From positions 1 to 61,875 of the forward strand of contig JBAJNK010000009.1 of the NCBI GenBank assembly GCA_036881805.1: 61,875 nt of DNA, in the 5' to 3' direction. Source of the DNA: Flavobacteriales bacterium (lineage in GTDB: Bacteria; Bacteroidota; Bacteroidia; Flavobacteriales; JANQLC01). A program made the translations under genes and the position numbers. The notes under the pieces were generated by a model. It ran no database searches. It saw only the letters and a list, made by a program, of their open reading frames with translations, and was not told where the DNA came from. Shown here in pieces: positions 2,484-40,546 of the stretch (positions are counted from its first letter, which is position 1; the number at the start of each line of letters is the position of its first letter).

Positions 2484-2554
2484 TCTGCAGGGCGAGAATA
2501 CGGCGATGGCCACTACGAGCAAGCCTATCCATGAGCAAGTGCCGCCCTTTCACT

Positions 2555-2900
2555 ACACACGGACGGACACAAAAGAGATAGCGCTCGCTTTTCAAACCGA
2601 CCCAGTTCGACTGTATAGTAAAAGCCGGCGCAGCTTATACAGGTATAGAAAACGAGATTACCCTTTTTCAAACCCTTATAAAAGAACAGAAAAATAAGCC
2701 TCCTTTTCAAGCCCCTACAAAAGGACAAAAGCAAAAAAATACCGCTGTTTAAGCTGCTAAAAACGGATGAATACAAAAAAGCAATCCCCTATTTTCAAAC
2801 GCTCACAAAAGGAGAAACACAGAAAAATAGTATCCGCTTTTGTACCCCTACAGCATAAAGCCAAAAAGACGAGACCGGCTTTTCAGTCCGATGTTTTTAT
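2555..2900 (-). repeat. array A of the ~44-bp TTTGAAAAG/GGGCTT/ATTTTTT intergenic repeat family (units read on the minus strand)
   Basis: The plus strand shows reverse-complement units such as aaaaataagcctccttttcaagcc, aaaaaagcaatcccctattttcaaacgc and aaaaagacgagaccggcttttcagtcc. A long-module copy lies at about 2600-2660. The array sits between convergent oxyR and cca. Confidence 0.75.
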
Positions 2901-7097: not shown

Positions 7098-7673
7098 ATG
7101 ATACGACCCATCATAGCCTATGGAGACCCGATTTTAAGGCAGAAATCCGCCCGAGTGCCTGCGGATTACCCAGACTTGAAAAACCTAATCGCCGATATGT
7201 TTGAGACCATGTATCACGCATCTGGTGTGGGCTTGGCGGCTCCGCAAATCGGGAAGCCCATGCGCTTGTTCATCGTCGATTTGACACCCTTTGCTACAGA
7301 TGAGGCAAACGCCCATATGAAAGGCTTTAAAAGGATTTTTATCAATGCCGAAAAAATTGAGGAAAGCGGTGAAGGGTGGCAGTTTAACGAGGGCTGCCTC
7401 AGCTTACCCACCATTCGCGAAGATGTCGTGAGACCGGCCTCGATAACGCTCGCATACGATGATGGGGATTTCAACCGAAAGCGCGAGACTTTTGACGGTC
7501 TGATCGCCCGCGTGTTACAACACGAGTACGACCATACCGAGGGTATTCTGTTTACGGACAAATTATCGCCTTTGAAAAAACGCTTGCTAAAGGGTAAATT
7601 GAACGACATCGCTAGGGGAAGCGTAGATGTAAACTATCCCATGCGATTTCCGCTCGGTGGAAAGGCCAGATGA
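7098..7673 (+). CDS. def: peptide deformylase
   Basis: The three deformylase motifs GVGLAAPQIG, EGCLSLP and HEYDHTEG are present. Confidence 0.9.
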   Translation: MIRPIIAYGDPILRQKSARVPADYPDLKNLIADMFETMYHASGVGLAAPQIGKPMRLFIVDLTPFATDEANAHMKGFKRIFINAEKIEESGEGWQFNEGCLSLPTIREDVVRPASITLAYDDGDFNRKRETFDGLIARVLQHEYDHTEGILFTDKLSPLKKRLLKGKLNDIARGSVDVNYPMRFPLGGKAR

Positions 7674-8305
7674 CGATCTAGATTTTATCGGTTCTATTAA
7701 ACCCTTGGGGTGGTGATGTATACGCTCGATGCAGTGATTCTGCTTTTGGAACCCTTTCAGAAAGTCTGTGAAAAATGCACTTCCCATATTAAATTTGTAG
7801 GGTATTATATCTCGCGAACTGTGGGTGCGTGCATTGGAGGTAAAATAATGGCAGTTTTGGCAAGCATGATGTATTTTTTAATCTGTTCAACCTGAGGATT
7901 GTGAAAAACACCTTACAGCTTATGCGATGGCAGCAGTGGGGGTGAGAGCGCAGTTTGGAATGCCTTTTAACATGGCAATCGCCTTCTTTCAACCTGTTGG
8001 GGATTTTTCGTCTGGCGTATAAGGCGAGAGGCGATGCGGTGGTCATCGCTTCGGCTTCTTGCGCCGAATGGGTCGAGCCCTTTGCCGATTATTGGCAGGT
8101 GAATTTTATCGGTACCGAGCTCCAATACAGGTCGGGCGTCTTTACCGGAAGCATTCAGGGCAAAAATTGCTGCGGCGCAGAAAAGCTCAAACGGCTTGGT
8201 GAAAGCTACGACTTTGAAGAGTTTTACAAGAAGATCGCTTTTGGTAACGGCCGGGGTGATCGAGCCTTGGCCGCTTGGGCAGATGGGTTTACTCGGGTGA
8301 TATAA
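7670..8305 (+). pseudogene. HAD-IB family hydrolase, degraded (several frame breaks and lost catalytic motifs)
   Basis: ATG at 7670 overlaps the def stop and is followed by TAG after 3 codons. DFIGSI replaces the DxDGT motif. The middle part is in a second frame (ORF 7710-7895). The C-terminal 116 aa (7955-8305) reads GDAVVIASAS...GKNCCGAEK...GNGRGD, which is HAD-IB-like, with GDSxGD degenerated to GNGRGD. Confidence 0.45.
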
Positions 8306-9758
8306 CCTTGTAAATCCAGTAGGCCTTCGGGATATGTGTAAGCGGTTTAAAAGTGTTTTCGCTTAGTTTGAACTTCCCCAGAAAGCCTTTCCTTACGACT
8401 AAGTAATCAAAATGGTTTTGGATGCAGAATTGGGTTATATAGCGCTTGCGGTAGGTTTCTGTCATTTTGTGCTTCAATACCATTTCGGTATTCATAATTA
8501 CAGCATTTTGATCGGCAGCGATGTCGTAATCTGTAAAGTTGGGATTAAAGACGATTGAGGGGGCGGCTAGGACCTTACTGTGCTTAGGTATGATTTGGTT
8601 TACCGTTTTATAGGCACGGTATATATCGGTGTTCTTTTTGAAGATAAATAAACCGCATTGGTGCATGGCAATGGAGAAGCTGCAACCCAAGACCAAGATG
8701 GCGATTGGCTGGGCGTAGCCTTTTCTGGAAAGCGCTATTGAAATCACATAAGTGATTAAAACAATGGCGTACGGATATGGATAGATGTTGTAGAAGGGTA
8801 TGGTGCCACTTACTGAAAAGAAATAAAGCATGAGGATTAACAGGACTAAGTAACGAATCTCGGCTTTTAAAACTGTAATCTTATTTCTAAGTAGAAAGAA
8901 CAGGGATAAAACAAGAGGGATGCTGTAGGCGAGTTCGTTAATGCCTCTAAAAAATAAATTGTTCAGCTTGCGCCATGAGATGAGAATGTTCCGCTCGTTA
9001 TGTAAGAGCACAGCGCGACTCGTTCTGAGCTGTTCCCACCAGATGAGATAGCCGTGGTCATATGCCACATCGGCAAAATACAAGAGACAGATCGAAGCGC
9101 CTAGGCCAAAGAGGAGGACAGTTCTAAAATTCTTATGGTATAAAGCGATGTAGGCTATGCCGCTTAGTATGAAAACCAAACCGTTTAGGTTGAGCAAAGT
9201 TGCTATACCGGCAAAGAGTCCAGCGAGAAAGAGAGACTTTCTTCCGCTGTTGTACGACAAATACCGGAATGATAGATAACCGAAAAGCGTTACGACCAGC
9301 TCCGGCCTATACATAAAAGACAACCGGATTAGATTGGGTAATACCAGAAGGTAAAACAATAGGATTAACCTGGAAATATTTTTGTTTGGCAGCCGGTTTC
9401 TGTAGTCGTACAGGACGATAAGTATTAAAGCGACATAAGCAGCTAGGCTTATGGATTTTAAGAGATAGGGGTTGAATTGGCCACTCAGGTAGATCAGCAA
9501 ACCACCCAACCAGATAAGCAATTTGTGATAACTGTAAACAGCTGTGTTATCCATTCCCAGTGACTGGTAATAGAGATGAAAGAGCTTTGTCCTGACTACG
9601 CCATGCTCGGCAAAGGAATGAGCGTATTCGCCCAGCCATCCATCGTCTATAAAAATGGACCGGTGGTACAAGCTGCATAAAAAGAGAAGGGCCAGCAGGG
9701 AAATCAGGATTTTTAAAGCGGTTTTGCCGCTTGTGGTAGGGCGTTTTGGTTTTTTCAT
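8289..9758 (-). CDS. polytopic membrane glycosyltransferase, ArnT/PMT (GT39/GT83)-like
   Basis: 489 aa with at least 10 hydrophobic segments and an N-terminal loop DDGWLGEYAHSF. The assignment rests on overall architecture only. Confidence 0.5.
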   Translation of the reverse strand: MKKPKRPTTSGKTALKILISLLALLFLCSLYHRSIFIDDGWLGEYAHSFAEHGVVRTKLFHLYYQSLGMDNTAVYSYHKLLIWLGGLLIYLSGQFNPYLLKSISLAAYVALILIVLYDYRNRLPNKNISRLILLFYLLVLPNLIRLSFMYRPELVVTLFGYLSFRYLSYNSGRKSLFLAGLFAGIATLLNLNGLVFILSGIAYIALYHKNFRTVLLFGLGASICLLYFADVAYDHGYLIWWEQLRTSRAVLLHNERNILISWRKLNNLFFRGINELAYSIPLVLSLFFLLRNKITVLKAEIRYLVLLILMLYFFSVSGTIPFYNIYPYPYAIVLITYVISIALSRKGYAQPIAILVLGCSFSIAMHQCGLFIFKKNTDIYRAYKTVNQIIPKHSKVLAAPSIVFNPNFTDYDIAADQNAVIMNTEMVLKHKMTETYRKRYITQFCIQNHFDYLVVRKGFLGKFKLSENTFKPLTHIPKAYWIYKVISPE

Positions 9759-9828
9759 GATGCAGCTGATTTGGCGGGGAGGAATGCAAATGGATACGAT
9801 GTTTTAAATGATTGCGCTAGGGTGTCCA

Positions 9829-10435
9829 TTAATCCGAATCTCGGTCGTTTAATTTTGAGTTTTTAAATATGTAATCGTAGAATTGACCAAAGCCATGTCG
9901 AATCTTTTTTACTAAAAGAAATGAATTGTCGTTCATTAGCGCTTTTAAGTCATCTAATTTGTACTTGTTTTTGTACATATCATCATCGTGTATTTCTACC
10001 TGAGTGTAATTTACTTCAAAATCTCTGCTTCTGTTACTCCAAAGTCCTCTTTAATCTATCGCTTAAGGATTTATTGGGCTCAAAGCAATAAATAGCGCAT
10101 TCCTTATTCAAGCGTTTGAAGAGTTTTATCGATTGTCCTCGGTTTGCTCCGACGTCGATTGCGGTTGTTGGAAAAAACCGTTTTGCTCGTACCATTTGAT
10201 AAGTTCTGTTAAAGATCAGCGACTCATTTATCTCTACGATATTGGAGACGAAGTACCTCCAAATCCCAATAAATTTCATATCTCTCAATCCCGCTTCTAT
10301 CTCACGGCGGCAAATTACTAAATATTCCTTTTTCCCAAAGCACTTGCACGAGTCCTGCGATCGAGTTTGTCGTTTCTCTTTTTTAGCTCGATTCCTCGCA
10401 TTCTCAAAGGGAAGGCTACTCGGCCCATGCCTGGC
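9829..10435 (-). pseudogene. FkbM-family methyltransferase remnant with an internal deletion and frame break
   Basis: The N-terminal part (to the stop at 10034) carries AIDVGANRGQSI...CFEPN. The C-terminal part is in another frame (about 10030-9829) and reads FEVNYTQVEIHDDDMY...LKALMNDNSFLLVKK. The central KIDVEG-type block is absent and there is no ATG at the head of the open frame. Confidence 0.5.
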
Positions 10436-10487
10436 TCAGCTCGTGATCGTCTATAAAGCCCTGCGCCTCGTATGGCATGTGATCGAA

Positions 10488-12362
10488 TCACTTGGCTATT
10501 AAAATCGGTATGGGGGTGATGTGGCGCAGGTGATTCACCGTTTCCCCGAAGAAATAGTCGCGCCAGCCGCGGTGGCCATGGCTGCCGACGACTAACAAGT
10601 CGCAGTTTTCACGCATGGCGGTCTGTTTGATAAAATCGCAGCGGTTGCCATACCCCAGTCGGGTTTTAGCGGCCATTCCCAATGTTTCGATTTGCGCTTT
10701 ATAATGCCGCAAATATACCTCGTCTTCGCGAAATTCCAAATCATCGGGTTTGGAATCGGAATACACCGCTGCCGCGCTTTCAGCTACGTGGATGAGGATG
10801 AAGGTGGTGTCGGACCCTGAAAACCGCAAAGCGGTTTGAATCACCCTTTCATCATAGCGTGAAAAGTCCAGTGCCAGAGCGATTTTTTGCAAGCTGTTTG
10901 TAGATACGCGCAGGCTTAAATCCAGCGGTTTGGGGTGGACGAGTTTTCTCGCTCTCATCGCCTTTTTGACCGGCAGCAGCGGCCAAAAGGTAACGGCCAG
11001 CATCAAGCCGACAAAACCGAGACCCAAAGCGATAAACAAGCTTTTTAACCCGATCGATTCGGTTTCGGTAAAGTACTGCATCAACGAATCGATCACCAAT
11101 TTTAAGTTTAACCCAGCGATAACGGCTATAGTAATCCAGCCTATTACCTTCCAAATCGCATGGAGGGTAAATTCACCCATGGTCTTCCGGTCGCTCACGA
11201 AGTGGAGTAGGGGAATGATGGCAAAGGAGAGCTGCAAGCTCAACACGACCTGGCTGAGTATCAGTAAACCGTTTAACGACCGATCGCCAAAGAGCACCAG
11301 CGCGACCACAGCGGGTATGATGGCCAGCCCTCTGGACAGCAATCGCCTCGCTATCGGACTGATGCGCAGTTGCAAATAACCCTCCATGACGATTTGTCCG
11401 GCAAGCGTACCGGTAAGCGTGGAGCTCTGCCCGGCGGCGATCAGCGCAATGGCAAATAGGATGGAAGCCCATCGGGTGCCGAGCAATGGTGCGAGTAGGC
11501 GTTGTGCGTCCGCCAACTCGGCTAGGTGCATATATTCGGTATTGAAAAACACGGCACCTGCGAGGATTAAAATCGCCGCGTTGACCAAAAAAGCTAAGTT
11601 GAGCGCGATGGCGCTGTCCAGCAGGTTGAATCGCAGCGCCCGCCTTATGGCTTGCGGCTTGCGCACTGTTTTTCGGGATTGTACCAGCGCGGAGTGCAGG
11701 TATAAATTGTGGGGCATGACCGTAGCACCGATGATTCCAATGGTGATATACAATGCGGTCGCATTGGGAATGTCTGGCTTGAGCCCCGAGGCGATGGCTG
11801 AAAAGCTCGGCTTGGCCCAAAACAATTCCAAAGAGAAACAAATACCGATGATGAGGATCAAGGCGATGATAAAGGCCTCTACCTTTCGTATGCCCAATTT
11901 TTGCAGGTAAAAGATGAGAATGGTATCCAACAAGGTGATCAGCACACCCCATAGAAGGGGTAAGCCAAAGAGCATATTCAGGCCGATGGCTACCCCCATT
12001 ACCTCAGCCAAATCGGTCGCTATAATGGCCAGTTCGGCCAAGCCGTAGAGTATGTAATTCACCCCCCTTGGGAAACCGATCCGATTGGCCTGTGCCAGGT
12101 CTAGACCGCGGACGATCCCCAGTCGTGCGCTCAAACTCTGTAAGAAAAGCGCCATGAGATTGCTCATCAGCAAAACCCAAAGCAATTTGTACTCAAATTG
12201 CGCCCCCCCGGCTATATCGGTAGCCCAATTGCCCGGATCCATATACCCCACGCTGACCAAATAGGCGGGACCAAACCATGTGAAAAGCCTTTGCCAAGAA
12301 TTTTTCCGCGTATTCGGATCAATGCTGGCATGAAACTCGCTGAGGGATTTGTCTACCTTCAC
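10488..12362 (-). CDS. mntH: Nramp-family divalent metal (Mn/Fe) transporter fused to a C-terminal universal stress protein domain
   Basis: 624 aa with a GTG start. It has the DPGNWATDIAGG Nramp signature and about 11 TM segments. The last ~140 aa are UspA-like (ILIHV...LLVVGSHGHRGWRDYFFGETVNHL). Confidence 0.85.
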   Translation of the reverse strand: MKVDKSLSEFHASIDPNTRKNSWQRLFTWFGPAYLVSVGYMDPGNWATDIAGGAQFEYKLLWVLLMSNLMALFLQSLSARLGIVRGLDLAQANRIGFPRGVNYILYGLAELAIIATDLAEVMGVAIGLNMLFGLPLLWGVLITLLDTILIFYLQKLGIRKVEAFIIALILIIGICFSLELFWAKPSFSAIASGLKPDIPNATALYITIGIIGATVMPHNLYLHSALVQSRKTVRKPQAIRRALRFNLLDSAIALNLAFLVNAAILILAGAVFFNTEYMHLAELADAQRLLAPLLGTRWASILFAIALIAAGQSSTLTGTLAGQIVMEGYLQLRISPIARRLLSRGLAIIPAVVALVLFGDRSLNGLLILSQVVLSLQLSFAIIPLLHFVSDRKTMGEFTLHAIWKVIGWITIAVIAGLNLKLVIDSLMQYFTETESIGLKSLFIALGLGFVGLMLAVTFWPLLPVKKAMRARKLVHPKPLDLSLRVSTNSLQKIALALDFSRYDERVIQTALRFSGSDTTFILIHVAESAAAVYSDSKPDDLEFREDEVYLRHYKAQIETLGMAAKTRLGYGNRCDFIKQTAMRENCDLLVVGSHGHRGWRDYFFGETVNHLRHITPIPILIAK

Positions 12363-20638: not shown

Positions 20639-20748
20639 GTCGCTGCTTTTCAAGGTACTTCAAATAATGCTGCAAATGAATTATCATATTGGTGGTAATT
20701 TTTTTTAAATAAAGCGGGTTTGTGCGAGATAATTCTTACCTTTCCCGC

Positions 20749-20940
20749 ATGAATACAGGTACAGTAAAATTCTTTAACAAAACCAAAGGTTTCGGTTTTA
20801 TTAAAGATCAGGAGTCAGATCAAGAGTACTTTGTGCACGTTACCGGCCTGATAGATGATATCGGTGATGGGGATGAGGTGACTTTTGAGCTTCAGGAAGG
20901 GAAAAAAGGATTGAATGCAGTAAATGTTCGCCAAGCGTGA
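20749..20940 (+). CDS. cold-shock domain protein (CspA family)
   Basis: 63 aa from the internal ATG. KGFGFI (RNP1) and FVHV (RNP2) are present. Confidence 0.85.
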   Translation: MNTGTVKFFNKTKGFGFIKDQESDQEYFVHVTGLIDDIGDGDEVTFELQEGKKGLNAVNVRQA

Positions 20941-20965: not shown

Positions 20966-20992
20966 AAGCCTCGCTTCGGCGGGGCTTTTTTT
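20966..20992 (+). terminator. intrinsic terminator downstream of the csp gene
   Basis: aagcctcgc-ttcg-gcggggctt forms a 9-bp stem (one G-U pair) and is followed by a T-run. Confidence 0.6.
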
Positions 20993-21004
20993 GTAGGGAT
21001 GACG

Positions 21005-21815
21005 CGCTTGGAAGGGCTTGAAAAGGCGGGCTTATCTTTTGACTTTACCCCGCTTATTTTTTTGTTTCTGTCCTTTATGTCGGGGTGATTTTTTGTGTTC
21101 GTCCGTTGTAGCATCTGAAAGCGCAGGCTTACCGCTCTGTATTCACCTATGCGCAGCGATATGAAAAGGAACTTGTTTTTTGGTGCTCGTCCTGTGGGGC
21201 GGTCTGAGAGGTGGGCTTTTTTTATTTCTGTGCGCGTTCTTAAAATCCTAGAATTACTTTTTTTGCTCTTTTATTTTGGCTTGAAAAGTGGGTTTTATTT
21301 TTCGTCCCTGTGGTCAGCGCAGCTGACTTTTACCACATATTCAAACTGCGGCGGGTCTGTGAAAATTGGGCTCGTCTTTTGCTCTTGCTCCTGTGGGCAG
21401 CCTGAAGGGGGTACTTTTCTATTTCCGATTGACGGTTTGAAAAGATGGGCTTGCTCTTTTGTTTCTCAAATTCTGTGCGGGTTTGAAAGATCGGTCTTTT
21501 TTTGTGCTCGCCCCTGGGGCAGCGCAGTGCCTTTTATCGCATATTTGTCTCGCCTCTTTATCTGTGCGCAGTGGTTTAAGAAGTGGGATTGTTTTCGGGT
21601 GCTCCTCCGTGCGTGGTGGCTTAAAGAGATGGGCTTGTTTTGGGTTTCCAGTTGACGGTGTAAAAAGTGGGTTTTAATTTTTTGTTTTTGACTTTTTCTA
21701 GGGATTGAAAGAGGAAGGCTCGTTTTTTTGTATTCGTCTCTATGGGTCAGTTTGAAAGAGGTGCTTTTTTGTTTTTGCCCTTTTGATGGGTTGGCGGCTG
21801 AGATCGATCTTTTGG
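21005..21815 (+). repeat. array B (largest) of the ~44-bp intergenic repeat family, about 16 units plus two long modules
   Basis: TTGAAAAG-type cores lie near 21018, 21115, 21162, 21205, 21240, 21281, 21359, 21403, 21437, 21482, 21575, 21620, 21659, 21704, 21751 and 21794. Each is followed by GGGCTT-like and T-tract segments. Confidence 0.85.
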
Positions 21816-30088: not shown

Positions 30089-31180
30089 TCACAAATTTTT
30101 GGAAATGTACTGAACGATGCGAAATTCGGAAAAGAACTCTTTTAAAATCACTTTTAAAGCGGTATAAGCCGGGATGGCAATAATCATTCCGACGATGCCG
30201 AAAAGCGTTCCACTCGTTAAGATGACCAGGAAGATCTCCAAAGGGTGTGATTTGACACTGTTGGAATAGATGAGCGGTTGACTGACAAAATTATCGAATA
30301 CCTGTGCCAGCAAATAACCGCTCAAAATGTAGAGCGCTGTGGGAAGCGCACGGTTCATGAAGTTTTGCCCGATCTGGCTTGAGAGCGCCAACAGGGTCAT
30401 CAGGATACCACCGATAAAGGGCCCTAGGTAGGGGATTATATTGAGCAATGCGGCGAGAAAAGCGATGACGATGGCATTGGGGATTCCGAATACCAGCAGG
30501 ATCAGGGTGTAAAAGGCAAATAAGATGCTGAGCTGTAGGAAGAGGCCTAAGAAGTATTGGGAGAGCAGGCGGTGTATTTTGATCAAAGCCCGTTTTACGC
30601 TGGGTATGTATTTTTGAGGGATAAGCGCATAGATCGGGTCGCTCATATTTTTGTCGTTCAACATAAAGAAAAAGGATATGAACAACACCGAGAGTAGCCC
30701 TACGGTAAAATTTCCTATGACACCGAACAGCTGGTTTAGGAGGTTGGGTATGATTTGCAGGTTTTTAGAATTGAAGAACCCGTAATCCTTTAAATCGGTT
30801 AAAATGTGAATGTGGTATTGAGACAGATATGTATCCACCTGATCCAACCATTCGTCAACCCGCAGCTCAAACTCCTGTATATCGAGTAGAGAGAGGTTTT
30901 GTGATTGGCTCGATATAAGCGGTACGAGCAGGCCTACCGTTGTAGATACCACCGTTACGATGATAAGGAGGGTAGCGATCACGCTGGCGACATTTGGAAT
31001 TTTGAGTCTCTTCAAGACCTTGACCAATCTCGAACCGATAAGGGATACCACAGCTGCGATGGCTATATATGTGATGATTATGCGAATCGCATAGAGAAAC
31101 CAAACGCATACACACACAAAGAGTATTACAAAACAGGCTTGTAAAATGCCCTTGGCTATCTCATTGGTCTGCCACTTCAT
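30089..31180 (-). CDS. AI-2E family (PerM/UPF0118) transporter
   Basis: Polytopic membrane protein. I took the start at the internal ATG (MKWQTNEIAKG) because the upstream extension runs toward repeat array C. Confidence 0.7.
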   Translation of the reverse strand: MKWQTNEIAKGILQACFVILFVCVCVWFLYAIRIIITYIAIAAVVSLIGSRLVKVLKRLKIPNVASVIATLLIIVTVVSTTVGLLVPLISSQSQNLSLLDIQEFELRVDEWLDQVDTYLSQYHIHILTDLKDYGFFNSKNLQIIPNLLNQLFGVIGNFTVGLLSVLFISFFFMLNDKNMSDPIYALIPQKYIPSVKRALIKIHRLLSQYFLGLFLQLSILFAFYTLILLVFGIPNAIVIAFLAALLNIIPYLGPFIGGILMTLLALSSQIGQNFMNRALPTALYILSGYLLAQVFDNFVSQPLIYSNSVKSHPLEIFLVILTSGTLFGIVGMIIAIPAYTALKVILKEFFSEFRIVQYISKNL

Positions 31181-31254
31181 AGCGGCAAAGGTAAAAAAAT
31201 AAGGATCGGCTATAAGACCCTTAATGCAGCCTTGCTGAGGTGACACCTTTGCCC

Positions 31255-31520
31255 AATGGGGTTCAGTTTAAAAAGAGTCGTCAGCTATGCTGACTGCTAC
31301 ATATCCCGACTTGGATGGGGTCTGAAAAGGATACTTTTTTTGTTTTCTGATCTTTTGTGGTGATTTAAAAAGCGCGCTTATTTTTTCCCTTACGGATTAG
31401 AAAAGTCCAATGCTGTCTTTAAAAAAATTGAGTTCAGGTGATCTGAGAGTCGGAGCGCATCCCTTTGTTTTTGACCTTTTGGATCGATTTAAAAGGTCTA
31501 TTTTTCTGTGCTTGTCTCCT
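31255..31520 (+). repeat. array C of the ~44-bp intergenic repeat family
   Basis: Units include cagtttaaaaagag, gtctgaaaaggatactttttttg, gatttaaaaagcgcgcttatttttt and cgatttaaaaggtctattttt. It contains the long module gtcagctatgctgactgctacatatcccgacttgg. Confidence 0.75.
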
Positions 31521-31530
31521 ATATGATCGC

Positions 31531-33321
31531 TTAGAAAGTCAGTCCATCGTTTTGGATTAAATCGGCTGCTATGGATTTTCGCAATGCGATGGGATTGGGA
31601 AGGTGGGTATACCGGGTAAAGCGCTTTAGCCCCATGCGCATCATTTGCTGCTCGTCACCTTCGACAGTGGAAAGAATGGCTTCCCGCCCATTTTTACCGA
31701 GTTTTTCCAATGCGTTATACAGGTTGAGTCTTGCCATATAGACCTGGGTTTGCACGCGATCTGCACCCTTTTGCGCAGCGGCTTTCTTCGTAGCGAGTAG
31801 TGCGGATTCGGCTGTATAGGTTTCGATAACCATATCGGCTATATTCAGTAAGATCTGTTGCTGTTCTCGCAGCTTTGCACCGAATTTTTCCACCGCTTTT
31901 GCGGCTACCATCAAGACGGCTTTCTTCATCTCACCGACGAGCTCCAATTCTTCCGAGAGCAATTCGCTATAATCCGGTGTCTCAAAAGCGGGAATATCCA
32001 TGAGTTCTTTCCCGACCTTCAAGGCGGGTCCCATCAAATCCAACTGACCTTTCATCGCGCGTTTGACCAACATGCCTACCGTGAGCAGCCGGTTGATCTC
32101 ATTGGTGCCTTCGTAAATCCTCGCTATCCGCGCATCACGCCAGGCAGCTTCCATAGGGGTATCCGCCGAGAAGCCCATCCCACCGTAAATTTGGATTCCC
32201 GCATCGGAACAATCCTGTGCGGCTTCTGAGGCGTAAACCTTCAAAATGGCGCATTCGATGGCGTATTCTGCCACACTTTTTAATTCGGCTTCTGGTTCTC
32301 TGGCTTTTTTCAATGCTGCAATGGCTTCTTCTATATTGTGTCCCGTGCGGTAGCAGCTCGTTTCACTGGCGTAATAACGCGTAGCCATCTCTGCCAGTTT
32401 GTACTGAATCGCCCCAAACGCCGAGATGGGTTGCTCGAATTGTTTTCGCTTATTCGCATAGCGGATGCAGTTGCCAATCACGCGGCGTTGCGCATCTAAG
32501 CAAGCAGCTGCTAGTCTGATGCGCCCGATATTTAAAGCGTTTACCGCAATTTTGAATCCGCCGTTGCGCTCGCCGAGCAAGTGGTCGGCAGGTACCTTTG
32601 TTTCGTTGAAGAAGACCTGTCGGGTGGAAGAGGCTCGAATGCCCAGCTTGTTCGCTTCTTCACCCAGGGTGATGCCGTTGGGGTTATCCGGGTCGTATTC
32701 CACCACAAAACCCGTGATGTTTTTATCGTCTTCGATGCGTGCAAACACGATAAAGACGCGGGCGAAGCCCGCATTGGAGATCCATATTTTTTGTCCGGTT
32801 ATCGCGTAGTGTTTTCCATCTTCCGAGCGCACGGCTTTGGTTTTGCCAGAATTGGCATCCGAACCGGCATCCGGTTCGGTCAGGCAATAGGCACCAAACC
32901 ACTCACCACTGGTCAATTTGGGCAAGTATTTTTTCTTGATTTTCTCGCTACCGTAGATCAGTATGGGCGAGATGCTGATGCCCGTATGTGCCCCAAAAGC
33001 CGTTGCGATGGAGCCTGTACCGCCTGAAATGCGGTCGCAAACCAGCATGCTGGATACGAATCCCATACCCAAGCCGCCGTATGCTTCGGGAACGCCTACC
33101 TTCAGCAAGCCCAAATCGCCTGCTTTGCGCATGATTTCCTCGGTAAACGCATAGTCTTTGCATTCAAATCGTGCCTTGTTAGGCCAGATCTCTCTATCGA
33201 CAAATGCCGTGGTGGAGTCGGCCAGCATTTTTTGTTCTTCATCGAAATCACAACTGGTAAAAACGTCTTCAGCAAGCGTTTCCCGGATTAGAAATGTGCC
33301 GCCTGGGGTTCTACTACTCAT
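31531..33321 (-). CDS. fadE: long-form acyl-CoA dehydrogenase (FadE type)
   Basis: 596 aa with the ACAD N/M/C domains and a C-terminal extension. It is the last gene of the fadN-fadA-fadE operon. Confidence 0.85.
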   Translation of the reverse strand: MSSRTPGGTFLIRETLAEDVFTSCDFDEEQKMLADSTTAFVDREIWPNKARFECKDYAFTEEIMRKAGDLGLLKVGVPEAYGGLGMGFVSSMLVCDRISGGTGSIATAFGAHTGISISPILIYGSEKIKKKYLPKLTSGEWFGAYCLTEPDAGSDANSGKTKAVRSEDGKHYAITGQKIWISNAGFARVFIVFARIEDDKNITGFVVEYDPDNPNGITLGEEANKLGIRASSTRQVFFNETKVPADHLLGERNGGFKIAVNALNIGRIRLAAACLDAQRRVIGNCIRYANKRKQFEQPISAFGAIQYKLAEMATRYYASETSCYRTGHNIEEAIAALKKAREPEAELKSVAEYAIECAILKVYASEAAQDCSDAGIQIYGGMGFSADTPMEAAWRDARIARIYEGTNEINRLLTVGMLVKRAMKGQLDLMGPALKVGKELMDIPAFETPDYSELLSEELELVGEMKKAVLMVAAKAVEKFGAKLREQQQILLNIADMVIETYTAESALLATKKAAAQKGADRVQTQVYMARLNLYNALEKLGKNGREAILSTVEGDEQQMMRMGLKRFTRYTHLPNPIALRKSIAADLIQNDGLTF

Positions 33322-33340
33322 ATTTTCTATGTTTAAAGCA

Positions 33341-34522
33341 TTAGTTCAACAATTCAAAAATACTGGCAGCACCTTGGCCGGTACCCACACACATGGTGAC
33401 GAGCCCGTATCGGTTGCCGCGTTTCTGCATTTCGTTTAACAATTGCACGGTGAGTTTGGTACCCGTACAACCCAAGGGGTGTCCCAAAGCGATGGCACCT
33501 CCATTTACATTGGTGATCTCGGGATTGAGTTCCAACTGGCGAATAACGGCAAGCGATTGAGAAGCAAAGGCTTCGTTGAGTTCCACCAGTTCGATATCGC
33601 GCAGTTTCATTCCAGCGCTTTTCAAAGCTTTGGGAACCGCTTCTACCGGGGCTATACCCATGATGCGGGGTTCTACCCCTGCTGTGGCATAGGAGACCAA
33701 GCGAGCCAGGGGTTTCAGCTCATACCTTTTGACCATGGATTCAGACATTATCAATGTAAAGGCAGCGCCATCGGAGGTCTGCGAGGAATTTCCAGCGGTT
33801 ACCGTGCCCCCTTGTGCAAAGACGGGCCTCAGTTTGGCCAAGGCTTCCCGTGAGCTATCCGCGCGTGGGCCTTCATCTTTGGTAAAAGTGGTGGACCTCG
33901 TCGTCTTTTTACCGTTTTCCAGCGTTGTATATGCGATGTCTAGCGGGGCGATTTCACCCTCGAAACGGTTCTCAGCCTGCGCTTTGCACGCGCGTTGGTG
34001 TGAGGTAAAAGCAAATGCGTCCTGGTCTTCACGACTGACGTGGAATGCTTGGGCGACTGCCTCGGCGGTGAGTCCCATATTGTAGTAATAATCTTCGTGT
34101 CCTCGGTGGACCAATTGGTAAGCCGGTACGGGCTTGAAGCCGCCCATCGGTATATACGACATGCTCTCCGCACCGCCGGCGATGATGCATTCGCCCATGC
34201 CGTTTCGAATTTTGGCGACAGCTGTGGCGATGGATTCAGACCCCGATGCGCAGTAGCGGTTGATGGTAAGGCCCGGAACCGCGACGGTATCCAAGGCGAG
34301 CAGCGATATGATTCGCCCTATGTTTAAGCCTTGTTCTGCTTCAGGCATGGCATTTCCGACGATGACGTCGTCGATTTCGTCTTTGTTCAAATCGGGTACG
34401 TCTGCCAGCACGCGTTTAATGGTAGCTGCGGCCATCTCATCGGTGCGCGTAAAGCGCAGTGAACCGCGGGGTGCTCTGCCCACTGCCGTTCGATATCCGG
34501 TAACGATGTAGGCTTCTCTCAT
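33341..34522 (-). CDS. fadA: acetyl-CoA C-acyltransferase (3-ketoacyl-CoA thiolase)
   Basis: 393 aa with the thiolase Cys NRYCASG plus GGAIALGHPLGCTG and CVGTGQG. Confidence 0.9.
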   Translation of the reverse strand: MREAYIVTGYRTAVGRAPRGSLRFTRTDEMAAATIKRVLADVPDLNKDEIDDVIVGNAMPEAEQGLNIGRIISLLALDTVAVPGLTINRYCASGSESIATAVAKIRNGMGECIIAGGAESMSYIPMGGFKPVPAYQLVHRGHEDYYYNMGLTAEAVAQAFHVSREDQDAFAFTSHQRACKAQAENRFEGEIAPLDIAYTTLENGKKTTRSTTFTKDEGPRADSSREALAKLRPVFAQGGTVTAGNSSQTSDGAAFTLIMSESMVKRYELKPLARLVSYATAGVEPRIMGIAPVEAVPKALKSAGMKLRDIELVELNEAFASQSLAVIRQLELNPEITNVNGGAIALGHPLGCTGTKLTVQLLNEMQKRGNRYGLVTMCVGTGQGAASIFELLN

Positions 34523-34529
34523 CTCATTC

Positions 34530-36926
34530 TCAATTTCGCAATGGTTTTCCCGTTTTCAATATGTGTTGTATACGTGCTAAGGTTTTCTTTTCCGTACAGA
34601 GAGACAAGAAGGCTTCGCGTTCCAAGTCTAATAAATACTGTTCACTCACGTAAGTGGCTTCGGACAGATCGCCGCCAGCCATCACATAAGCCAGTTTTCC
34701 AGCTACCTTTTTGTCGTGCTCCGAGATGTAATTTCCGGCCGACAGACTGTCTGCGCCGACTAGAAATACACCCAACGCCTGTTTACCCAGCACTTTTACC
34801 GGTGTTGGAACCGGTTTGGTGTAGCCGTTTTCAGCCCTTGCCAAAGCGCATTGTTTGGCTGCGGCAATTCGCCGCTCATCCTGAACGACCACGAGGTCTC
34901 TGCCCGCTTTTAAGAAACCCGATGCAAATGCCTCATAAGCCGAAGTGGAAACCCGAGCCATGCCGATGGTGGTGAAGTGATCTCGCAGGCGATTGAGTTC
35001 TACATCCCCTTTGTGGAAGGTTTCAGCAGCGCGTTGGGTCATTTCTTTGGAACCGCCTCCAGCGGGGATTAGGCCTACACTGCACTCCACTAAGCCCATA
35101 TAGGTTTCCGCTGCAGCTACGACTCGATCTGCGTGTAAGCACAGTTCGCAACTGCCACCCAGCGTCATCGCATGGGGTGCGGCTACTACCGGGATAGCGC
35201 TGTAGCGGATGCGCATCAACGCATGCTGAAAAGTCTGTACCGCCCGGTTGAGTTCTTCGTATTCCCGCTCGACGGCCAGCATAAAAATCATACTTAGGTT
35301 GGCACCTGCGGAGAAATTTTGGCCCTGGTTGGCTATGACAACACCTTGAAAATCTCTTTCAGCGATTTCGATTCCTTTGTTTAGGCCCTGAATCACTTCG
35401 CCGCCGATTGCATTCATCTTGGATCGGAACTCGATATTGAGAATGCCATCGCCCAAATCTTCAATCGCACAACCTCGGTTTTTCCAAACCGTGGTAGTGG
35501 GACGTATGTTACTCAATGTGATGTAATGCGCCTGTCCGGGTATGGTTTGGTAATCGCCTGTTTTTATATCGTAGTAATACCGGGTACCCTTTTCGTCTAC
35601 CCGGTAGAAATTCGCCATGCCTTTGCGCTGCATCTCACCGACCCATTTGGCCACTTCACAGTGGTTTTCCTTCGCAATGCGAATGCCCACTCGTATCCCT
35701 ACGGCATCCCATATTTCAAATGGCCCTTGTCGCCAACCGAAACCGGCGCGTATGGCATCGTCGATTCGATACAGTTCATCTGCGATTTCGGGAATGCGGT
35801 GGCTCACGTAGGCGAACAAGCTGCCCAGGGTGCTGCGGTAAAATGCAGCGGCTTTGTCCGTTCCTTTGATTAAGAAGGGAAATCGATCGGAGATACCGTC
35901 GATTCGCTTGGCGCTTTCTAGCGCAGCAAATCGGACTTTCTTGCGCGCGCGGTAACGCATTGCGTCCAGGTCCAAACTGTGTATTTCGCTCTTCTCGCCT
36001 TTTGTCTTTCGGTAAAAACCCGAACCGGTTTTGGCGCCCAACCAGTTTTTATCCAACATATCTTGGATGTAATCCGGCGGGGAGAAGGTGGCGTTTTGTT
36101 CATCGCCTTTCAATTGCTGTAAGCCTTTGGCAACGCGTACCAAGGTGTCCAGGCCGACGACGTCTACCGTGCGAAAGGTAGCCGATTTGGGTCGGCCGAT
36201 TACCGGGCCGGTGAGCGCGTCGACTTCTTCGATGGTCAGATCGAATTTTTTTACCTCGTGAAACAGCTTCATAATGCTAAAGATGCCCACTCGGTTGGCG
36301 ATGAAAGCGGGTGTATCTTTGCATAAGACCGTGGTCTTTCCCAAGAATTTGGCACCGTACATCAGCAGGAAGTCGATCACCGCTTGCGAAGTGTGGGGGG
36401 CGGGGATCACTTCGAGCAGCTTTAGGTAGCGAGGTGGGTTGAAGAAGTGCGAACCGGCAAAGTGTTTTTGAAAATCTTCACTGCGACCCGCCGCCATGAG
36501 GCCGATGGGAATTCCAGATGTATTCGAGGTGATGAGCGTGCCCGGCCTTCGATACTTTTCAATTTTTTCAAAAACCGATCTCTTAATTTCTAAGCGCTCT
36601 ACCACCGCTTCGACAATCCAATCGACTGCGCTTAGCTCGGGTAAGTCGTCTTCTAAGTTTCCGGTTTGGATGCGCTTGATAAAAGCTTTATCGTATAGGG
36701 GGGCGGGCTTGGATTTAGCGGCTTGGGCCAAGTTTTCCACCGCCATGCGGTTGCGTACGGCTGGGTCTGTCCGGGCTAAGCCTTTGGCCTTTTCTCCTTC
36801 GGTGCATTCGCGCGGCACGACATCGAGCAAAAGCACCGCCACACCGATATTGGCAAAATGGCAGGCAATGCCCGATCCCATAATACCCGATCCGATGACG
36901 GCAACGCGGCTAATTCGCCTCTTCAT
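34530..36926 (-). CDS. fadN: 3-hydroxyacyl-CoA dehydrogenase / enoyl-CoA hydratase fusion (FadN type: dehydrogenase N-terminal, crotonase C-terminal)
   Basis: 798 aa. It has the N-terminal Rossmann motif IGSGIMGSGIA and a C-terminal crotonase-fold region. Confidence 0.85.
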   Translation of the reverse strand: MKRRISRVAVIGSGIMGSGIACHFANIGVAVLLLDVVPRECTEGEKAKGLARTDPAVRNRMAVENLAQAAKSKPAPLYDKAFIKRIQTGNLEDDLPELSAVDWIVEAVVERLEIKRSVFEKIEKYRRPGTLITSNTSGIPIGLMAAGRSEDFQKHFAGSHFFNPPRYLKLLEVIPAPHTSQAVIDFLLMYGAKFLGKTTVLCKDTPAFIANRVGIFSIMKLFHEVKKFDLTIEEVDALTGPVIGRPKSATFRTVDVVGLDTLVRVAKGLQQLKGDEQNATFSPPDYIQDMLDKNWLGAKTGSGFYRKTKGEKSEIHSLDLDAMRYRARKKVRFAALESAKRIDGISDRFPFLIKGTDKAAAFYRSTLGSLFAYVSHRIPEIADELYRIDDAIRAGFGWRQGPFEIWDAVGIRVGIRIAKENHCEVAKWVGEMQRKGMANFYRVDEKGTRYYYDIKTGDYQTIPGQAHYITLSNIRPTTTVWKNRGCAIEDLGDGILNIEFRSKMNAIGGEVIQGLNKGIEIAERDFQGVVIANQGQNFSAGANLSMIFMLAVEREYEELNRAVQTFQHALMRIRYSAIPVVAAPHAMTLGGSCELCLHADRVVAAAETYMGLVECSVGLIPAGGGSKEMTQRAAETFHKGDVELNRLRDHFTTIGMARVSTSAYEAFASGFLKAGRDLVVVQDERRIAAAKQCALARAENGYTKPVPTPVKVLGKQALGVFLVGADSLSAGNYISEHDKKVAGKLAYVMAGGDLSEATYVSEQYLLDLEREAFLSLCTEKKTLARIQHILKTGKPLRN

Positions 36927-37164: not shown

Positions 37165-37800
37165 CGGCTAGCGCTTCAGATCGATCCCGCCGACCACAGG
37201 GACGGAAAATAAGCCCACTTTTTAAACCGACTCACAAGACAAATACCAAAGGTAAAAAAAAGCAAAAAAACAATTCTGGGATTTTAAGAACACGCACACA
37301 GGAATAAAAAAAGCCCCCTTCAGATGCCACACAGCACGAGCACCAAAAAATAAGACGCCACTTTTTAGAACAGCCTATAGCGGCAAACCCAAAAAAGCAA
37401 ATCCACCTTTTTAAACCATTGTGCACAGATAAAGAGGCGAGACAAATATGCGATAGCAGGCACTGCGCTGCCCCAGGGGCAAACACGAGGAGTAAGCCCC
37501 TTTTTAAATGACTCCCATTCCCATATGATTTACGTCAAGAGCACAAAAAAACAAACCCTGCTTTTCAGTTCGCCAACCGGAGCAAACACCGACTTTTTAA
37601 ACCGTCATAAAAAAGAGTAAGACCTAAAAAAACAAGGCTGGGGTTGCATTGGATTGCTATAGCCGTGCCGGGATAAAACCAAAAAACACTTTATTTTTCA
37701 AACCCGCACAAAAGGGTGGAACCCGAAAAATAAATCCTGCCTTCAAACTGCCCCACAGCAGACAAAGCCAAAAAATAAGGCTGACTTTTCAGCCAGCCTT
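37165..37800 (-). repeat. array D of the ~44-bp intergenic repeat family (units on the minus strand)
   Basis: The plus strand shows aaaataagcccactttttaaacc, aaaaaagcccccttcagatg, aaaaataagacgccactttttagaac, aaaaaagcaaatccacctttttaaacc and similar. It contains 69-nt and ~165-nt modules shared with array B. Confidence 0.85.
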
Positions 37801-37825: not shown

Positions 37826-40228
37826 CTATCCATTGAGATGGAACGGCAAGATCAGCTTGAATGAGATATTTCTTCCCATTTGATACATGCCGGTTGCTGG
37901 ATTTTTACCTATGTATTTCAGACGGCTCATATGGTCTTGGTAGACTTTGTCAAACAAATTATCGGCGATCACATAAATACGAGCTGAGCTGTTTCCGCTC
38001 TTGTTTGTAAGGGTACACCCCATACTCGCGTGAAACAAGGTGTAGTCGGGTGTAGCGGTTTCTGTATCGTATAGCGTGTAGACGTGGTCTTGTTTAAAGT
38101 TGTAGTCTAGACCCAAGGTTAAAAATACAGACTGGAAAACGGCCTTGGGCTTATACACCGCCTTTATTTCCGAGCGCAGATCAGGTGCAGGGATGAAAGG
38201 CAGGTATTTTCCCGCCTTGCTCGCGTAATCCTGGAATTGTCCATTTACAAAGGAAAAGCTGTTGTTCCAATGCAACCAGGGCACTTCTTTCGGGTGTACT
38301 TTCAAGCCGGCTTCAGCGCCCCAAAGCTGCGCATCTCCCTGCTCGTATTCGAACAATTCCGCCTCGCCAATCATTCGCTTCTCGGGGTCCTTATGGATGT
38401 AAATGTAATCGGCTATGGCGTTGTAGAAGCCAGAGAGATTAAGGGTTAGCGCATCGCTATCACAGATCAAACCCAGGTCGAACTCCGCATCGGTTTCTGG
38501 GTCTAGATTTGGATTTCCCAGTTCATAGCGACTGGTACCTTCGTGGATTCCATTTGCGGAGAGTTCCTGTGAGTTGGGTGCTCTAAAGCCGCGTGCTGCA
38601 TTGAACTTCACAGTCAGATAGTCGTCGATCAGGTAACTGAGTCCCAGGCTGGCGCTCAGATCTGAGAAATCCGCTTTAAAGGCGTTAAAACCGGGCTCGA
38701 TACCGACTTGAGCGGGTTCGTCCACTTCTAAGGCTTTGCTGTTTATATGGCGCAGATCAAAGCGAAGGCCCCCCGCTAGATTCCATTTGTCGGCGATGGT
38801 TTTGCTCACATAGCTGTAGCCGCCGAAGTCGAATAAGTCGTAATTGGGGATCAAGTTTTCCTCGCCCTGGGTTTTATTGGTTTGGTACATGCCGTTCGCA
38901 CCCCATGTGATGTTCCAACCGCCGATCGGGCTCAGGTAGTATCGCGCGCCGTAATTATAGGTTCGCAGTAGCAGATCCAGGGCTGCGCCGCTTTCTTCCG
39001 CCTCTGCTTCCTGTTCTTCACCCTCGTCCGCCTCGGCTTCTGGTGCCTCAAACTCTTGCCTTTTGTCTCGTTGATAAGCCAGATCGATTTGCAGGCGATC
39101 GGAACCGACAAATAGGTTTTGCTCGAGTTGCACCCGGTAATGCCTGAGTCTTTGATAGGGCAGTCCGATGGCATAACTATCTAACTCGCTTTGCGATACC
39201 ACTTTATCCACTATTTTCCCTTCCTCCTTCACGGGTTTGGTAAATGCGCCGGTCTCGTCTCTTTCCCCTTCGATAATCCCGAGTTTTTGACCAAAGGAAT
39301 TGAAGAAGAGTTGCGTATTGCCCCAGTTGTAATCCCAACCCAAATCACCGGAGAATTCGAGGTTTTCAAATCCCGAATTGTACACGGTGCCATCCGCATC
39401 ATTCTTATAATTACCCGCTTGTTTGCGGTCTAAATCGATGCGCCAAAAAAGGGCGTCGAGCCTTCCAGAGTTGCTCACACCGTATTCTTGCATGTCGTTG
39501 TTGCTCTGGTATTGCGATTGTAAATGCCCGCTTATCGCACCGTCTTTCAGCTGTTCCTCGGTGATGAAGTTAATCACACCCCCTAGGGCATCCGAGCCGT
39601 ATAGCAAGCTGCTGGGCCCTTTGATAACCTCTGCGCGCTGTATGCCGAGTTCTCCGAGTTGAACGCCGTGTTCAGCGCCCCACTGTTGTTCCTCTTGCCG
39701 CACCCCGTTGTAAAGGGTTACCACGTGGTTGTATCCCAGGCCGCGAATGATGGGTTTGGAGATGGCAGGCCCGGTTTGTAAATCGTCGACACCGGGTATT
39801 TGGGTGATGGCATTGACGATATTGGAGCTGGCCTCCGCTTCCATGTCTTTGGCTTGAATAACGGCTGAACTTATGGGTGCACGGCGTTGGTCGATCGAAT
39901 GGGCAACCCCGGTTACGATGATTTCGTCCAACTCCCCACTGATTTCTTTCAAGTGGATGCTATAATTTGATTGATCTTCGTTAAAAAAGACGTTTTTTGA
40001 TTGATATCCCACCATGGTTACGACAAAGGTAAAGCGCCCTTTGTTGGGAGTCTGTATTGAAAATTTCCCATTTGCGTTCGTCGCGGTTCCCTTTTGAAGC
40101 GCTTTGCTGTATAGATTGGCGCCAGACAAGGGATTTCCAGAAGCATCGGTAACCGTTCCGGATATATCGTGTTGCGCCATAAGCGCGGTGTTCGCCAAAA
40201 AGGCGAGGCATATAGTTAATTTTTTCAT
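37826..40228 (-). CDS. TonB-dependent outer-membrane receptor with N-terminal carboxypeptidase-regulatory-like domain
   Basis: 800 aa. It has a signal peptide, ISGTVTDASGNPLSGANLY (CarbopepD_reg-like), a plug region, and a long beta-barrel portion containing an acidic insert EAPEAEADEGEEQEAEAEESG. Confidence 0.85.
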   Translation of the reverse strand: MKKLTICLAFLANTALMAQHDISGTVTDASGNPLSGANLYSKALQKGTATNANGKFSIQTPNKGRFTFVVTMVGYQSKNVFFNEDQSNYSIHLKEISGELDEIIVTGVAHSIDQRRAPISSAVIQAKDMEAEASSNIVNAITQIPGVDDLQTGPAISKPIIRGLGYNHVVTLYNGVRQEEQQWGAEHGVQLGELGIQRAEVIKGPSSLLYGSDALGGVINFITEEQLKDGAISGHLQSQYQSNNDMQEYGVSNSGRLDALFWRIDLDRKQAGNYKNDADGTVYNSGFENLEFSGDLGWDYNWGNTQLFFNSFGQKLGIIEGERDETGAFTKPVKEEGKIVDKVVSQSELDSYAIGLPYQRLRHYRVQLEQNLFVGSDRLQIDLAYQRDKRQEFEAPEAEADEGEEQEAEAEESGAALDLLLRTYNYGARYYLSPIGGWNITWGANGMYQTNKTQGEENLIPNYDLFDFGGYSYVSKTIADKWNLAGGLRFDLRHINSKALEVDEPAQVGIEPGFNAFKADFSDLSASLGLSYLIDDYLTVKFNAARGFRAPNSQELSANGIHEGTSRYELGNPNLDPETDAEFDLGLICDSDALTLNLSGFYNAIADYIYIHKDPEKRMIGEAELFEYEQGDAQLWGAEAGLKVHPKEVPWLHWNNSFSFVNGQFQDYASKAGKYLPFIPAPDLRSEIKAVYKPKAVFQSVFLTLGLDYNFKQDHVYTLYDTETATPDYTLFHASMGCTLTNKSGNSSARIYVIADNLFDKVYQDHMSRLKYIGKNPATGMYQMGRNISFKLILPFHLNG

Positions 40229-40513: not shown

Positions 40514-40546
40514 CAAAGGTAAGGATATTGAAAAATACGGCACAAA
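40514..40546 (-). promoter_or_regulatory. Bacteroidota-type promoter for the TonB-dependent receptor gene
   Basis: On the minus strand: TTTG (plus 40543-40546), a 21-nt spacer, then TAccTTTG (plus 40514-40521). It lies about 280 nt upstream of the ATG at 40228. Confidence 0.4.

Follow-up and report, generated by a model that had tools for sequence, protein, structure and literature searches.

The 61,875-bp contig JBAJNK010000009.1 (GenBank assembly GCA_036881805.1), analysed here over its whole length and referred to as the window, comes from an uncultured marine-type Flavobacteriales bacterium and carries head-to-tail arrays of one degenerate repeat unit in seven of its intergenic regions. 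The focal array, A2, occupies positions 21005-21815. This is a previously undescribed repeat family, which falls outside every named family with which we compared it. The arrays are most likely non-adaptive DNA, and they probably descend from an old burst of a lineage-specific, non-palindromic mosaic minisatellite family that is now decaying neutrally under relaxed selection.

Between 20800 and 22000, the window contains a long stretch without a plausible gene, in which TTTGAAAAG...GGGCTT...TTTTTT segments recur. An nhmmer profile was started from 17 hand-picked aligned short units and then iterated, yielding TGAAAAGGGGGGCTTATTTTTTTGTGTTTGTCC as its final core consensus. Scanning the window with this profile gave 39 hits at E<1, all 39 within seven named intergenic regions and, in each array, on one strand only. 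The hits extend over 2553-2887 (-), 21018-21780 (+), 31320-31517 (+), 37197-37792 (-), 44790-45382 (+), 50702-51061 (+) and 61528-61870 (+). Five shuffles of the window in 500-bp blocks left 0, 0, 0, 1 and 0 hits, and five shuffles in 100-bp blocks inside the seven regions left 0 hits each; therefore, the array signal reflects a motif and not base composition. Searching the arrays alone with the profile tiled 63 units (Table 1), with a median start-to-start spacing of 46 bp (interquartile range 42-62, and 37-50 bp in 64 % of cases). The spacings divide 20/23/13 modulo 3, so multiples of three are not preferred.

These results agree closely with the original prediction, made by a model from the letters alone. 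Its seven arrays lie at the coordinates and in the orientations that it had given, its consensus corresponds to linker type b plus the core of the profile-derived unit (see below), and the variable spacing that it described as no multiple of three was recovered. The arrays together span 3,430 bp, or 5.5 % of the window, where about 3.5 kb and 5-6 % had been estimated. The estimate of seven arrayed gaps among those longer than 250 bp stands, with the correction that such gaps number 13-14 (of which about 7 hold arrays) and not roughly twelve. Among the core starts listed for 50690-51065, seven match the profile (50701, 50743, 50789, 50828, 50874, 50963 and 51037), and at 50922 the sequence resembles the core more weakly and belongs to a different module. 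Tandem Repeats Finder reported nothing on the focal stretch, because the units are too degenerate, with a mean identity of about 61 % compared with 53 % for composition-shuffled units. Seed-and-extend repeat finding returned many families with copies 60-80 % identical, located mostly in the seven intergenic regions, plus a few scattered matches outside them.

Table 1. Coordinates of the repeat arrays in the window and of the individual elements within or beside them
Feature	Coordinates	Strand	Content
Array A1	2553-2888	-	8 units, hidden Markov model (HMM) hits and tiling
Cold-shock-gene intrinsic terminator	20966-20996	+	AAGCCTCGC-TTCG-GCGGGGCTT, then T7
Array A2 (focal)	21005-21815	+	16 units, HMM hits and tiling
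30-nt hairpin insert in type-b linker (L module)	21306-21335	+	CCCTGTGG-TCAGC-GCA-GCTGA-CTTTTACCA
26-nt hairpin insert, second L module	21514-21539	+	CTGGGGCAGCGCAGTGCCTTTTATCG
Array A3	31255-31530	+	4 units and one hairpin module
Array A4	37165-37800	-	12 units, HMM hits and tiling
First A4 unit, TonB-receptor gene terminator	37777-37800	-	AAGGCTGGCTGAAAAGTCAGCCTT, then ATTTTTT
Array A5	44700-45407	+	9 units and two hairpin modules
Array A6	50690-51091	+	7 units, a/b dimer pattern; seed-and-extend family D14
Array A7	61520-61875	+	at least 7 units, ended by the window edge

In each unit of about 44 bp, a core, TTTRAAAAG-N2-4-GGnCTT-A-T5-7, precedes a linker, of which there are several types. 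In the pooled units, conservation is high at the T preceding the A-run, at the A-run itself and at GG, TT and the T-run, most other columns being near random. Linker type a reads GTTTTTGAyCTTTTGTGCGGG and type b reads GTGCTCGTCCGTGCGTGGCGG, while type L, present at least once in every array, is a type b linker split by a 26-30-nt hairpin insert (consensus TCAGC-N3-GCTGA-CTTTTAyCACATAT). A fourth linker module, similar to TTGCAAAAGTCCAATCACATCG, is common to A3, A5 and A6. The arrays are mosaics in which a single shared core is joined to several linker modules. Multi-unit blocks are also shared by arrays: 21504-21590 in A2, which includes the insert at 21514-21539, matches 37486-37400 in A4 over 87 bp at 90 % identity, and a second pair (21172-21319 in A2 and 37354-37188 in A4) is 75 % identical. 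The unit strand is T- and G-rich and C-poor (T 33-39 %, C 14-19 %), its complement is C-rich, G-poor and folds poorly, and G+C content is 39-45 % in the arrays compared with 48.9 % outside. Three arrays lie between convergent genes, and the remaining four comprise two that are co-directional with transcription and two that are antisense. Array orientation is not tied to transcription of the flanking genes.

Close relatives were found through cluster look-ups, and about 100 kb of the lineage was examined. Between the window and the sister species (ENA ERZ23496374 scaffold_5 and Logan SRR13209713), 4.8 % of coding nucleotides and 10.3 % of four-fold sites are different. For an outgroup (L206, GCA_028280815.1), the four-fold divergence from the window is 31 %, and the GyrA encoded on a still more distant contig (L082) is 81 % identical. 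Scanning these relatives with the nhmmer model, a check proposed with the original prediction, located copies within a small clade. In the sister species, arrays occupy six of the seven sites known from the window (A1-A6), and the A7 site holds unrelated sequence without an array. In L206, about eight units follow the TonB-receptor gene (the A4 site) and one follows the TPR gene, giving about 9 in 22 kb; its gap at the A5 site measures 192 bp and holds a single unit. No units were detected in L082. Therefore, the family is confined to a small clade, with its abundance rising toward the window species. G+C content follows a parallel gradient, from 55 % in L082 (no units) through 51 % in L206 (few) to 48-49 % in the sister species and 48.5 % in the window (many in both). 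Outside this clade, 80 syntenic loci of other Flavobacteriaceae (1.6 Mb) gave one weak profile hit, and a metagenome scan for GTTTRAAAN{8,16}TTTTTN{14,26}GTTTRAAA returned at least 120 loci, all of them single chance matches, with no array among the matches listed. A self-BLAST screen of other loci for analogous arrays was insensitive, as it did not recover the arrays of the window itself.

A second assembly of the same species (GCA_044670265.1) is 99.92 % identical to the window over 22.4 kb and contains every array there intact, with A1 identical (L084) and only 2 of the 17 differences falling within arrays; therefore, the arrays are real. Contigs nevertheless end inside them: one (L210) in A2, and both the window and the contig of the other assembly of this species (L216) in A7. 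From about position 61776, these two same-species assemblies part inside the T-run of a unit and continue with different units, and both contigs (L216 in its positions 1-250) end within about 250 bp of this divergence. The discrepancy represents either an assembly branch or real array polymorphism, and the last ~100 bp of the window should be read with caution.

The comparison with the sister species carries most of the weight for neutral decay. Orthologous arrays are colinear in blocks that are 85-91 % identical. Across 2,044 well-aligned array and flank positions, mismatches affect 12.6 % of the high-information core columns (35/278), 17.1 % of the low-information core columns and 11.7 % of the positions elsewhere (188/1608). 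The alignable array blocks differ overall by 12 %, close to the 10.3 % of four-fold sites. With array rates about equal to the four-fold-site rate, there is no detectable purifying selection on the motif. The array-bearing gaps also differ in length by up to two-fold, measuring (window/sister) 441/842 bp for A1, 879/1039 for A2, 284/482 for A3, 899/635 for A4, 761/1292 for A5 and 720/1182 for A6. The differences arise through indels, several of them near whole-unit size, with sizes including 46, 132, 231, 274, 384 and 431 bp. A 46-bp unit of A4 (37724-37769), for example, is present in the window and absent from the sister species, the 231-bp indel in A2 is bounded by the direct repeat TTTTGTTTCTGTCCT, and both A2 hairpin inserts (21306-21335 and 21514-21539) are precisely absent in the sister species.

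Relationships among units within the genome point to an old origin. Adjacent units share a mean identity of 0.60, as do units of one array in general, compared with 0.61 for units of different arrays. For 6 of 39 units, the best-matching partner belongs to the same array, which is the 15 % expected by chance. No near-identical tandem copies were found in the window or in the sister genome. Given that adjacent units are no more alike than others and that such copies are lacking, there is no sign of recent local duplication or homogenisation. Among paralogous units, core columns match the consensus at about 80-90 % and linker columns are near random, and by eye the type-b linkers look similarly conserved to the core columns. 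If they are, per-unit divergence would be roughly 0.15-0.2 per site. Per-lineage neutral distances are about 0.065 to the sister species and about 0.27 to L206, and the burst would therefore be placed between the two splits, a dating that would agree with the observed distribution.

Signs of weakened selection extend to the genes. The ratio of non-synonymous to synonymous substitution (dN/dS) against the sister species is 0.09-0.18 for gyrA, fadB, thiolases, the TonB receptor and others, and 0.10-0.18 against L206. Calculated in this way, fadB yields 0.02-0.04 for pairs of other Flavobacteriaceae (dS 0.24-0.7), and the values of this lineage (window vs L208 and L206) are four to eight times as high. 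Some genes appear damaged as well. The gene for an ATP-dependent phosphoenolpyruvate carboxykinase (PEPCK) at 52114-53729 is split into two overlapping open reading frames (ORFs; 52114-52842, 242 aa, and 52839-53729, 296 aa), representing either a frameshift pseudogene or an assembly error, and is intact in the sister species (529 aa, L211 18407-19996). A piece of an FkbM-type methyltransferase gene (10034-10288, motif IDVGANRGQS) lies in the gap 9758-10488, and pieces of a HAD-family gene lie at about 7712-8301 in the gap 7673-8305. The sister gaps measure 46 bp at the FkbM site and 249 bp at the HAD site, with no gene called in either. The high dN/dS, the apparently damaged genes and the lower G+C content together indicate relaxed selection; low G+C content fits this regime and is insufficient by itself to show it. 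Relaxed selection makes the tolerance of useless DNA plausible.

Two genuine terminators may hint at where the core came from. The intrinsic terminator of the cold-shock-domain gene, immediately upstream of A2, has 9 pairs, 6 of them G-C, in the terminator scan. It is separate from the A2 units and lies in a segment 97 % identical to the sister species, and its 3' arm and T-run resemble the unit core. The first A4 unit doubles as the terminator of the TonB-receptor gene (-16.2 kcal/mol, z -4.5). It is picked by the terminator scan, scored as a unit by the profile and kept in both the sister species and L206. Because the core reproduces the loop, 3' arm and T-run of the terminators heading A2 and A4, and because the profile scores the A4 terminator as a unit, the core possibly derives from a terminator. 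In the scenario that we favour, it would be the remnant of a local-type intrinsic terminator, with a GAAA-containing loop, the 3' arm GGGCTT and a T-run, that was amplified and dispersed to many intergenic sites in one ancestral burst, after the L206 lineage had split off and before the window and sister species separated. The arrays are now decaying through neutral-rate substitutions and through indels, some of them whole-unit or unit-like, with short direct repeats flanking the one boundary inspected and with hairpin inserts that differ between species as precise indels. Weak purifying selection would let them persist, and any present effect is probably generic, such as gene spacing or the provision of recombination or assembly breakpoints.

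Several points weigh against this scenario. The 12.6 % mismatch of the core columns comes from 278 sites, with a wide interval of roughly 9-17 %, and the filter for well-aligned positions pushes identity upward. The contrast between core and linker columns could reflect past or weak selection and not the mixing of several linker subfamilies. Abundance across the genome is extrapolated from the ~100 kb examined, and the terminator origin is argued from resemblance. Finally, given that A7 occurs in the window species only and that same-species assemblies differ inside it, activity could be continuing.

The strongest competitor, which we nevertheless regard as unlikely, is that the arrays are functional double-stranded-DNA platforms, serving as landing pads for a nucleoid-associated or regulatory protein, as insulators or as supercoil buffers, for which the A-tract/G-run/T-tract grammar and the copy number would matter and the exact sequence would not. 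Such a role would account for the retention of the same ~12 core columns in about 60 otherwise strongly diverged units, and for the lower G+C content of the arrays (39-45 % compared with 48.9 %). Arrays that fill whole intergenic spacers, in orientations independent of transcription, are likewise what a double-stranded-DNA function would predict. However, the core columns diverge between the sister species at the speed of neutral sites, array lengths differ by up to two-fold, one array is missing in the sister species, and the closest outgroups carry few units or none. The lack of motif conservation between the two species lowers the likelihood of a protein landing pad. Phased intrinsic curvature, one of the functions suggested originally, did not emerge from a wedge model: values were 6.0-8.7 degrees per helical turn in the arrays, compared with a window mean of 7.3, about 7 in shuffles and 24.7 in a control of phased A6 tracts, all of these values being approximate.

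It is also doubtful, and rather more than merely unlikely, that the family is still active, with units, blocks and hairpin inserts being copied by frequent gene conversion between arrays or by an enzyme encoded elsewhere, such as a recombinase, an HUH/Y1 transposase or a reverse transcriptase. Ongoing copying would be consistent with the restriction of A7 to the window species, the two hairpin inserts that are precise indels between sister species, the 87-bp block that remains 90 % identical in A2 and A4, the difference inside A7 between assemblies that are otherwise 99.9 % identical, and a reverse-transcriptase gene that the sister species has and the window lacks. On the other side, no pair of units exceeds about 91 % identity in about 100 kb, most best matches being 70-77 % identical, no transposase appears in the gene tables covering the window, and no terminal inverted repeats were found. 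Moreover, every indel can be read as a deletion, and the A7 discrepancy sits at contig ends.

We give similarly little credence to the idea that the arrays correspond, in a bacterium, to satellite DNA, and either play a genuine role or are produced by a mechanism still at work. A lineage-specific DNA-binding protein could coat the A-tract/G-run/T-tract grammar and partition the chromosome into insulated domains, or a templated or recombinase-driven mechanism could still be adding units and small hairpin inserts. If true, the second possibility would account for the restriction of A7 to one species, the precision of the hairpin indels and the long life of the core motif.

A role in RNA synthesis is very unlikely. 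The arrays would act either as tandem weak polar terminators or pause sites, through a wobble-paired stem followed by a U-run on the unit strand, or as a source of a C-rich, unstructured complementary transcript on which Rho is loaded. A T-run closes each unit, two arrays start at real terminators (A4 with its first unit, A2 immediately after that of the cold-shock gene), three have convergent genes on either side, and the complementary strand is C-rich, G-poor and poorly folding, as this role would lead one to expect. Folding results argue against it: the mean z of 39 single units is about 0 on both strands, and A6 (50690-51070), folded whole as RNA, is less stable than dinucleotide shuffles (z +2.0 and +1.3 on the two strands). 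The four informative arrays are split between two co-directional and two antisense, and the sequences are not conserved. Only the first A4 unit forms a strong hairpin, the bulk lacking a hairpin-plus-T-run form. Apart from about two units, the arrays are not terminators, and the suggestion of tandem weak terminators is not supported. Compensatory change has not preserved the stem of the hairpin modules: an explicit two-helix model found 63.5 % of cells paired in ten L copies compared with 64.7 % in shuffles, and RNAalifold predicted no structure in these modules. Nor are these arrays of promoters; the Bacteroidetes -7 promoter motif TAnnTTTG is not enriched, with 4 of its 61 window matches in the 7 % that holds arrays.

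That the arrays are artefacts of metagenome assembly, created by collapse, expansion or chimeric joins, can be practically dismissed: contigs of several assemblies do end in arrays (A2 for L210, A7 for the window and L216) and two assemblies give different sequences for the final ~100 bp of the window, but six arrays are the same in an independent assembly and the sister species, assembled from other samples, has orthologous, colinear arrays at six sites.

Searches for a known identity agree with the view, put forward with the original prediction, of a non-coding family without a known name that is neither a CRISPR nor an insertion sequence. At the gathering threshold, Rfam recognised only a tRNA-Ser (48820-48903) in the window and no family in the arrays. 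In E-value mode on A2 and A4, it gave sub-threshold hits only, which in A2 fall on the cold-shock-gene terminator in all but two cases and in A4 are scattered and weak. As predicted, no cas, transposase or RAYT gene is listed in the gene tables covering the window, nor a RAYT gene in about 10 kb beyond it. Six arrays were tested for terminal inverted repeats at their borders and had none, blastn against plasmid and phage collections gave no match, and we found no paper describing the repeat, its assemblies or the sequencing runs. A CRISPR was rejected because the units are 61 % identical and contiguous, no cas gene is in the gene tables and Rfam CRISPR families stay below threshold. A coding function was rejected because unit lengths are not multiples of three. 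A 168-aa ORF (21149-21655) does traverse A2, but only as a consequence of how few stop codons the GT-rich unit strand contains. Such ORFs may be called as hypothetical proteins, as with calls of 45 aa and 69 aa in L081 and L208.

The genes flanking the arrays are ordinary Flavobacteriales housekeeping genes. A1 is flanked by the 3' ends of two genes, one for a LysR-type regulator (1494-2483, +) and one of the CCA-adding/poly(A) polymerase type (2925-4361, -), and its sister orthologue (L212) has 10 hits. A2 lies 3' of the cold-shock-domain gene (20722-20940) and its terminator and reaches the stop of the convergent gene at 21820; the sister orthologue (L214 3530-4466) is colinear, with 16 hits. 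A3 is antisense to both neighbours, an AI-2E transporter gene (30089-31246, -) and an acyl-CoA dehydrogenase gene (31531-33321, -), and its hairpin at 31280-31294 is a terminator when read on the minus strand, according to the terminator scan. A4 separates the TonB-dependent receptor gene (37826-40228, -) from fadB (34530-36926, -), A5 lies between convergent TPR (43210-44646, +) and thiolase (45408-46595, -) genes, A6 is upstream of rimM (51092-51613, +) and A7 is upstream of a MiaB-like radical-SAM gene (60038-61444, -). A stretch GGCGG...GATCGATCT with the palindrome GATCGATC ends both A2 (21798-21812), where it is kept in the sister species, and A4 (about 37180-37200, -); it may be a tail module or a methylation/restriction site.

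Gene order changes at some of these sites. A3 and A4 bracket a fatty-acid oxidation operon (acyl-CoA dehydrogenase, thiolase and fadB; 31531-36926). In L206 (5027-9261), this operon is absent here, and the AI-2E transporter and TonB-receptor genes are 744 bp apart, with units in the gap. L082 (1-9424) has a MarR gene and a 566-aa gene at the A4 site instead, and tblastn with these two proteins against the window revealed no gene remnant in A4. Given the absence of the operon in L206 and the other genes in L082, the arrays coincide with changes in gene order. Elsewhere, a small conserved ORF of about 93-110 aa (40290-40637, -) lies between the TonB-receptor gene and gyrA; it matches a 110-aa L082 protein (tblastn E = 4e-7) and is among the genes called in L206, and the 448-bp gap between the two genes is therefore partly coding. 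The sister species has a 517-aa reverse-transcriptase gene (RVT_1; L211 16692-18245) between groEL and the PEPCK gene, where the window has only a 248-bp gap (53729-53977). Near the 3' end of lpxD (26336), a single-base indel distinguishes the two assemblies; the gene call of the window has 351 aa and that of the second assembly 344 aa.

Considering that bacterial genomes are usually compact, it is uncommon for about 5 % of the sampled DNA to consist of decaying minisatellite arrays. Relatives with none, few or many units, together with falling G+C content and raised dN/dS, offer a natural case study of repeat invasion and erosion under weak selection. In practice, the arrays break metagenome assemblies, yield spurious long ORFs (e.g. 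21149-21655) and evade standard tandem-repeat finders. Evidence of a function, or of a generator still at work, would make the case considerably more interesting.

Among known systems, mycobacterial MIRUs are architecturally the closest, likened here by description and not by sequence. They are direct tandem repeats of 40-100 bp without obvious palindromes, present at many, mostly intergenic loci with variable copy number (PMC5056196), and the family described here shares the direct, non-palindromic tandem arrangement at many intergenic loci, with 63 units at a median of 46 bp. However, the host phylum is unrelated, the units are far more degenerate (about 61 % identical) and the arrays are longer and denser, with 7 in 62 kb compared with 41 MIRU loci in a 4.4-Mb genome. 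MIRUs also keep a fixed orientation to flanking genes, whereas A3 is antisense to both neighbours, and they contain small ORFs overlapping the stop and start codons of neighbouring genes, whereas unit lengths here are no multiples of three. BIMEs and NIMEs are extragenic mosaics of a recurring short unit and a few linker modules, often between convergent genes (PMC3184786), and the arrays resemble them in both respects, so that the initial suggestion of a BIME/REP-like mosaic holds for the joining of core and linker modules. It does not hold for the units themselves. REP and dRS3 units are palindromic or inverted-repeat sequences rich in G+C, and successive BIME units alternate in orientation, whereas all units here are head-to-tail, GT-rich on one strand and hairpin-poor: neither A6 as a whole, which folds worse than its shuffles, nor the 39 single units showed the palindromic stem-loops of REP/BIME units, and the profile hits within an array showed no alternation of strand. 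The nearest precedent within Bacteroidota is BrickBuilt of Porphyromonas gingivalis, a species-restricted, always intergenic, minisatellite-containing miniature inverted-repeat transposable element with multiple copies per genome (PMC4596501). BrickBuilt is built of 23-nt bricks without spacers, with leader and tail subunits whose ends are inverted repeats; in contrast, the units here are degenerate and about 44 bp long, and we saw no terminal inverted repeats and no common leader or tail. Rho-independent terminators share the loop, 3' arm and T-run that the core resembles, and the first A4 unit is one of them, but most units lack a 5' arm and are no more stable as hairpins than shuffles. Given that at least one defining feature of MIRUs, of BIMEs/NIMEs and of BrickBuilt fails here, the arrays represent a new family of a known general kind.

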